Below are positions 48,745 to 49,335 of a DNA stretch of 64,000 nucleotides, one piece after another. The notes under the pieces were generated by a model. The model saw nothing but the letters and a program-made list of their open reading frames with translations, was not told the origin of the DNA and searched no databases. Where the stretch lies: contig OZ024742.1 in the NCBI GenBank assembly GCA_964016885.1, forward strand, positions 278,194,001 to 278,258,000, written 5' to 3'. A program made the position numbers and the translations under genes. The DNA comes from Eledone cirrhosa. Lineage: Eukaryota. The stretch's first letter is position 1, and each line of letters starts with the position of its first letter.

Positions 48745-49335
48745 AATTAGTTGGAAGTGATATTTTAGTAAGTAAGTTAATTTTATAATTTTCTTATTTT
48801 ACGTCTCTTATATTATTGTTCTGCAACGCCATGCATTGAACCACACTGTTATTAAGACAAAGCCTATATATTTGCTAGCATTGATATGCATCTGTATGTA
48901 TATATATGTTACTAGATATGAATTCTTTATTATTATCTCCAAATTATTTGTCGAGCAATATTGGCCATGACTGCTGCTACGGTTGTAGGCAGGCCGCTGT
49001 CCTATTAGCAAACCACTTTCCACTGATTGACCTCGATGTCACGTGTTCGATTATTTTTGAATTTGCCACAGACGTAGAGGCAGTGATTTTCTCAATGGCT
49101 TGGAATTCAGTCCACGCTTTGCTATTTCCTATCCACTGAATTATTTATTAATAAGTTTCCAGTGTCCTCTCTTTGCCTGGAAACTTACATGAGAATAGAC
49201 TTTCCTGACGACGGAATGCTTCTCTTTATTATTCTTCGGAAAATATATTTACTCCATTCCAGAAACTAATTAGTTGGAAGTGATATTTTAGTAAGTAAGT
49301 TAATTTTATAATTTTCTTATTTTACGTCTCTTATA
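48745..49335 (+). mobile_element. Non-coding HHR retroelement: 523-bp unit plus ~68-bp terminal redundancy, inside (TA)n
   Basis: 48745-48813 repeated at 49268-49336; (TA)n on both sides; contains an HHR. Confidence 0.87.
49199..49281 (+). ncRNA. Type I hammerhead ribozyme
   Basis: ACUUUC-CUGACGA-cGGAAUG...CAUUCCa-GAAA-CUAAUUAG-UU^-GGAAGU; palindromic stem III; C.A mismatch at the base of stem II. Confidence 0.85.

Follow-up and report, generated by a model that had tools for sequence, protein, structure and literature searches.

A 523-nt hammerhead repeat of Eledone cirrhosa with Penelope-like termini and variant patterns that suggest repeated copying of single ribozyme-cut monomers

How animal retrozymes spread has so far been a matter of hypothesis: either Penelope-like elements (PLEs) copy their circular RNAs (PMC4209133, PMC7229834) or a solo insertion is expanded locally (10.64898/2026.07.22.740005). 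Circles have been shown in coral, mussel and axolotl, and PLEs were proposed as the mobilisers, with tandem cDNA made from the circles (PMC7229834); a 2014 paper made the same circle-copying proposal for PLEs (PMC4209133), and Li, Clavereau and Pollet (2026) linked retrozymes by sequence to pseudo-long terminal repeats (pLTRs) and discussed local amplification (10.64898/2026.07.22.740005). PLE insertions are 5'-truncated partial tandems, often with an inverted arm, that carry a 30–40 bp tail on one arm and are biased toward microsatellites (PMC8557442, PMC3846280). On AT-rich DNA, the PLE protein of the anole cleaves and extends the two strands, priming at two internal RNA sites that flank the tail, and it is predicted to be a dimer (PMC11167929). 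Here we analyse a repeat with a 523-nucleotide (nt) unit, one copy of which lies in a 64,000-nt stretch of Eledone cirrhosa DNA (assembly GCA_964016885.1, contig OZ024742.1, positions 278,194,001–278,258,000 of the forward strand), hereafter the window, whose coordinates are used throughout. We are very confident that this repeat is a retrozyme mobilised by PLEs. The window copy is a 5'-truncated non-LTR retrozyme insertion, probably made in trans by a PLE enzyme from a template that was likely a circular, ribozyme-cut monomer.

The window copy lies on the + strand within a microsatellite, annotated as (TC)n(TA)n to the left of the insertion (48591–48745) and as (TA)n to its right (49332–49385). 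Window self-comparison finds an exact 70-nt direct repeat (48744–48813 and 49267–49336) with a spacing of 523 nt. We number the unit from the first base after the predicted cut (+1 = 48753), which places the upstream cut site at 48752/48753. The 5' truncation point leaves the 3' strand of helix III and the upstream GUU^ site, a half hammerhead (48744–48752), and the first TA of the copy (48744) is common to insertion and flank. One complete cut-site-to-cut-site unit follows (48753–49275); it is 523 nt long and non-coding, with 35% GC and a longest stop-free stretch of 84 codons when read in the dimer. It runs into the single complete hammerhead of this copy, a type I fold with a palindromic helix III (49199–49281) and a predicted cut after 49275. 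The terminal segment, +1 to +61 (49276–49336), stops at site A, the putative start of reverse transcription. Within the unit, site A is at +61 (48813) and site B at +178/181 (48930/48933); the 117 nt between these fixed 3' ends (48814–48930, the 'tail') form a putative protein-binding module that includes a bulged hairpin and motif (48818–48844), which a sister family has also kept. An earlier sequence-only reading of this locus had described a 523-bp hammerhead-bearing unit with its first ~68 nt repeated before a (TA)n end, and the spacing, the fold and the 70-nt terminal repeat bear this out. It had also placed the start of the terminal redundancy at the cleavage site, with the insertion beginning in helix III a few nt before GUU^; the repeat starts 9 nt upstream of the site (7 without the shared TA).

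The family-level evidence for PLE mobilisation comes from the termini. Across the 3.0-Gb genome, patterns placed close to one or the other 3' end match 4255 and 2578 times. We sampled 58 loci with the first 100 listed core matches and 39 loci listed only by the end patterns, on contig C1, and mapped 166 arms on the repeated unit, keeping the 160 with at least 80% identity and dropping six older ones. In these 160 arms from 97 loci, 76 3' ends fall at A (+56 to +65, counting also those called at +45 because a 19-nt duplication interrupts the alignment) and 70 at B (+173 to +182), with three near +155 and 11 elsewhere. Nearly all A and B ends (142/146) run into a TA run, the 5' flanks of single arms are TA-rich in 28/40, and the termini are not LTR-like. 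Among 57 head-to-head inverted pairs there are 42 A+B, one A+A, one B+B and 13 with another end, so that 42 of the 44 pairs with both ends at A or B combine the two sites (binomial p 5.6e-11), and the tail, 117–120 nt in this family, is on one arm. The arms of one locus differ from each other by 2.0%, from other loci by 6.9% and from the best-matching other locus by 1.7% (medians, 34 loci); both arms therefore derive from the same template or a close sister.

Three other accounts of these ends and arms were rejected. If ends were set purely by TA microhomology, the TA run near +155 should be in use, but it serves just 3/160 arms. L1-type twin priming predicts a pile-up of 5' ends that is absent (three vs 5.2 expected at +62, two vs 4.2 at +179). 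Loci such as L043 and L052 argue against a pure fold-back origin of the inverted arms, since in them neither arm is contained in the other. About 11 of the 57 inverted pairs (L037, L057, L065, L073, L079, L083, L098, L124) join near the same unit position, and some of the inverted junctions may therefore have arisen by fold-back or by end annealing.

Because the fixed 3' ends and the A+B pairing match PLE priming, we read A and B as a two-site PLE tail. Many PLE-like GIY-YIG loci are present in the E. cirrhosa genome, as are long frames in which a reverse transcriptase (RT) domain is followed by a C-terminal GIY-YIG domain (the RT score lies under the Pfam cut-off in two of three). A CxxC motif before the nuclease suggests that these frames are of the Neptune type. 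Two PLEs of this genome end in (TA)n ~76 nt past a hammerhead-like motif. A 938-codon frame with RT and C-terminal GIY-YIG (L158:3009–5822, − strand) lies between repeats with a hammerhead-like motif and is a candidate for a recently active PLE. With eight query proteins, no arm at the 97 loci was found joined to a PLE open reading frame (ORF); a PLE protein match is nearby at 45/97 loci, none joined in sense at the 5' end, and the nearest upstream match on the same strand is 507 nt away. The sequence-only reading had set fixed linear ends attached to PLE ORFs against its proposal of a circular or multimeric template; the 3' ends are indeed fixed (146/160), but no arm is attached to such an ORF. 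Since the ends are of PLE type and no arm is joined to a PLE ORF, we take the repeat to be a non-autonomous PLE derivative, a non-LTR retrozyme.

The 5' ends are scattered across the unit. In a sample of 143 that is partly anchored on the hammerhead core, one falls between −9 and 0, where 3.8 are expected. Three copies genome-wide, including that of the window, start in the same way after (TA)n, vs five at a control site ~70 nt upstream, and a further copy, at L221, starts at −7 after (CT)n. Because a start near the cut site is no commoner than at the control site and 5' ends scatter, we attribute the start of the window copy to chance; a terminal redundancy beginning at the cut site had been read as the signature of copying a circular or multimeric RNA, and here it reflects ordinary truncation. 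The varied circular permutations expected from that proposal are seen for the 5' ends but not for the 3' ends, which are fixed at two sites. Copying over the junction of such an RNA is nevertheless supported by other data, namely junction crossing and variant inheritance, which favour a single re-copied monomer over a tandem precursor. In 78 arms picked by the 3'-end pattern alone, +20 was reached by 69, of which 65 went on through the cut site; 14/17 did so a second time, and arm lengths fit an exponential with a mean of 439 nt (Kolmogorov–Smirnov p 0.35). The cut site is no barrier to copying.

The inheritance of variants is informative about the template. Locus L210 pairs a 9.3-unit arm, which ends at B, with an inverted arm that ends at A. 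The eight complete units of the locus are identical to within one base, and a variant shared by 9/9 units is absent from the rest of the genome. At 8 of 17 young multi-unit loci (three-fold unit coverage), all units carry a variant that is unique to the locus in the set of 51 compared. The sister family has a 483-nt unit and is present in the window as an inverted insertion (about 13300–14245); its young lineage yielded 75 marker matches at 17 loci, of which one is older. Complete unit 2 is the only unit of L236 with 460T>C, and complete unit 3 the only one with 61T>C and 98T>C. L235 carries 460 in 4/4 units without 61/98, and L240 (4/4, 3/3) and L229 (2/2, 1/1) carry 61 and 98 throughout without 460. 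A private variant of L233 is present in 11/11 units over both arms. A variant of a single unit cannot reach every unit when an array is copied linearly, and we therefore conclude that one unit was isolated and repeatedly copied. The monomer boundary thus falls within the 86 nt that separate 460 from 61, a stretch with the cut site in it but neither A nor B. Should L236 instead be a patchwork of jumps, its switch point would still sit within these 86 nt. These results suggest a ligated circle as the simplest explanation of single-unit inheritance, although jumps on the same linear monomer could also account for it.

Several points weigh against such a template or against a role of the ribozyme in making it. 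A second L210 variant is present in 2/8 complete units, which one circle does not explain. The unit-to-array pattern is that of the sister family, with one parent and three daughter loci, and no parent–daughter case was found in the 523-nt family among 51 loci. Assembly polishing may raise unit identity in arrays. There is a mild excess of 5' ends at +1 to +20 (14 vs 7.7 expected, p 0.027 uncorrected; 3 of 17 arms on the second pass), which suggests that some cut ends were linear. In vitro, uncleaved RNA served as substrate for the anole PLE, whose hammerhead was dispensable (PMC11167929), and the two additional bases (C and A) that border helix II, described below, are off consensus and could weaken cleavage. 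Finally, no PLE sharing the unit or the module was found by blastn, motif scan and nhmmer in 50 of the 150 listed GIY-YIG loci.

An unlikely alternative retains PLE priming but has the RT jump from the 5' end to the 3' end of a linear cut monomer in each round, with no covalent circle. End-to-end jumping is a property of R2-type enzymes. Such jumping likewise sets the monomer boundary at the cut site and fits the excess at +1 to +20; L236 could be a jump mosaic, and the L210 variant shared by two of eight units is compatible with it. However, the arms in the crossing sample pass the junction at about the background stop rate, junctions in the L208, L209 and L210 arrays keep unit length and sequence, and the 11/11 and 9/9 private variants would require a return to the same haplotype each time.

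Somewhat less likely still is a template in the form of uncleaved linear tandem RNA transcribed from a longer genomic array, with the hammerhead unused in copying. Such a transcript can neither fix a one-unit variant in all units nor lengthen arrays, and the L210 variant occurs in no second array. Unit differences shared between loci show no same-order excess (21 of 527 pairs in the same order vs 23 in the opposite order; 33 arms, low power), and the hammerhead fold is kept across subfamilies down to ~70% identity. The proposal draws support from the anole PLE, whose dominant in vitro substrate is unprocessed RNA (PMC11167929), and from Xenopus, where 8/9 tested dimers were uncleaved (10.64898/2026.07.22.740005); in the present family the core is variant, and an 11-unit arm exists that could have been the source of shorter sisters. 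The insertion of a solo pLTR followed by in-place expansion through unequal crossover or slippage (discussed in 10.64898/2026.07.22.740005) is very improbable: it would also yield identical units with private fixed variants in one arm, as in L210, and the longest arms do exceed a single exponential of mean 439 nt, but both inverted arms of L233 are multi-unit with a common private variant, many dispersed young loci have 3–11 units, and unit-to-unit differences within an arm (343/14157 positions in 33 arms, median 2.2%) are at the arm-to-arm level of 2.0%, as if the units all date from insertion.

The hammerhead that would release the monomer consists, on the + strand, of helix I (49199–49204/49276–49281), the CUGACGA core (49205–49211), helix II (49213–49218/49255–49260), the GAAA core (49262–49265), a palindromic helix III (CUAAUUAG) and the triplet GUU^ with the predicted cut at 49275. 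The CUGANGA, GAAA and NUH core elements and helices I–III are thus all present, with GUU as the triplet. We regard the core as a variant because an extra C (49212) and an extra A (49261) adjoin helix II. Both are invariant in 18 diverse copies, as is the G10.1–C11.1 pair (18/18), yet this pair is bordered by the extra C and A. An extra 5' base at helix II is described as typical of PLE hammerheads, with no extra A mentioned alongside it (PMC4209133); mispairs beside the hammerhead core have been treated as usually disqualifying (PMC3088659).

Rfam gives no hammerhead match here at the gathering score, nor among 14 matches at E ≤ 10, perhaps because the loop of helix II is long and the topology open. 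Folded by itself, the motif is no more stable than shuffled sequences (z 0.53). The case for the fold therefore rests on comparison. The 28-nt core pattern has 2188 exact matches in the genome vs none for the reversed control. In the 18 copies, 99.1% of helix II cells are paired, 3/6 pairs are altered on both sides, and the covariation score is reached by 0/500 shuffles, with the reservation that these copies were hand-picked for diversity and that related sequences can beat a shuffle control; slid helix II partners pair in only 34–54%. Among 153 pattern matches in the sampled loci (seven from the sister family and a few spurious), most cores read CUGACGA or CUGAUGA, a C/U toggle at position 7, and helix II appears as several mutually compensating variants. 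Judged by these comparisons, the type I hammerhead fold is more than chance. Its helix II loop (49233–49242 and homologues) forms a short hairpin with a UUCG cap in most subfamilies, and the oldest subfamilies have an alternative paired loop instead of this cap.

The cycle that we propose would run as follows. A tandem copy would be transcribed, and its hammerheads, whose fold and conservation are observed, would excise +1 to +523 monomers. These would be ligated into circles, as shown for other animal retrozymes (PMC7229834). A PLE RT/GIY-YIG endonuclease, modelled on the anole protein (PMC11167929), would then bind the +62 to +178 module, nick (TA)n and start cDNA from +61 or +178, the fixed ends that are observed; extension of both target strands, one per site, would give the inverted arms whose pairing we see. 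The enzyme would pass the junction and fall off at a roughly constant rate, as the length distribution indicates. The window copy would have begun at +61, completed one full round and stopped 7–9 nt beyond the second junction. In its fullest form, to which we give an even chance, the genome records rolling-circle reverse transcription by a Penelope enzyme: a PLE dimer would clamp the ~117-nt module on one circle and prime both (TA)n strands from its opposite edges, copying up to ten units per arm, with a one-unit bottleneck at the ribozyme cut in each generation, so that the hammerhead would be needed in vivo though dispensable in vitro.

On folding, the catalytic half and the upstream half-site of the window copy can in principle pair in cis through an 8-bp helix III and a 6-bp helix I. 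The constrained folds have energies of −125.5 and −126.5 kcal/mol vs a minimum of −133.0 kcal/mol; pairing with the upstream half-site is 1 kcal/mol from the own-site fold, and both lie 6.5–7.5 kcal/mol above the minimum. Complementation of the half-site in cis is geometrically possible. As a source locus the window copy was rejected: its 110A>G has 19 scattered matches, all in other subfamilies, which share none of its other variants bar the common 368, and no daughter copies were found. Copies spaced at 7.3 kb on C18 are segmental duplicates. The single copy in the window is ordinary, and its value lies at the level of the family.

The sister family has 1196 core matches genome-wide, ends at +80 and +188, a canonical G–C pair at the base of helix II and, elsewhere in the genome, arrays of up to 10 units; by hand count its inverted pairs comprise 17 A+B, one A+A, one B+B and five with another end. 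The bulged hairpin between A and B is common to both families, with 128/128 cells paired, and two compensatory pairs are swapped between them, which counts as one inherited event rather than six. From this conservation we infer that the PLE protein binds the A–B module. Many substitutions of the young sister lineage (L229, L235, L236, L240, L243, L208) are T>C on the RNA-sense strand, as would be expected if G were placed opposite U in reverse transcription.

Other elements lie near the window copy. A third hammerhead-bearing insertion in (TA)n (49822–51594) has a perfect fold-back at 50661/50662 and type I motifs at 49860–49914 (−) and 51408–51462 (+) with palindromic UGCGCA; its arms are identical over 838 aligned bases and the right arm is ~90–95 nt longer, a tail-on-one-arm layout. 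Directly after the 523-nt copy, also in (TA)n, is a palindromic element resembling a miniature inverted-repeat transposable element (49386–49784), with inverted terminal arms and a 67-nt inner hairpin; it has very high depth in public contigs, and similar sequence occurs beside L023. Upstream, a diverged 200–230-nt tandem repeat (47461–48118) gave no hammerhead match in a scan. Further type I hammerhead families occur at L159:5700–6228, L168:842–910, 5551–5595 and 6768–6798, L166:6645–6683 and L173:4766–4804; one of them is repeated at 459 nt and some have U–U at the base of helix II.

In the retrozyme literature we found no terminus mapping, A+B pairing count or test of variant inheritance, although supplements and subscription papers fell outside the search and may hold them. 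The termini of this repeat link it to the two-site priming of PLEs, and the way in which variants pass from array to array points towards a re-copied monomer bounded by the cut site. Cleavage, circle formation and priming are directly testable in a genome that combines lineages both young and nearly identical with a defined RNA module and with long PLE frames. The repeat resembles animal non-LTR retrozymes (PMC7229834, 10.64898/2026.07.22.740005) in its non-coding tandem unit of 35% GC with one type I hammerhead each, its short palindromic helix III, its thousands of copies and the presence of PLEs in the same genome. It differs from them in the extra C and A at helix II and in that its circle is proposed from genomic evidence; its unit of 523 nt compares with 170–400 nt in invertebrates (PMC7229834) and 51–972 nt (10.64898/2026.07.22.740005). 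Like the EN+ PLEs (PMC8557442, PMC3846280, PMC11167929), it has two fixed 3' ends downstream of the hammerhead, a tail on one inverted arm, 5' truncation, partial tandems and AT-rich or (TA)n targets; unlike them, it has no ORF, a tail of 117–120 nt rather than 30–40 and arms of up to 9–10 whole units, and none of the PLE families examined matches it in sequence. MRC1 and other non-autonomous Chlamys elements (PMC8557442) are likewise non-autonomous PLEs with multicopy head-to-tail insertions, but they share 3' sequence with their partner, whereas no partner was found here in 50 of the 150 listed loci, and Naiad/Chlamys are described as without canonical hammerheads (PMC8557442), whereas a hammerhead is present here. 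The kind of element is thus already known, and this family provides genomic support for the rolling-circle, PLE-driven cycle proposed for it.
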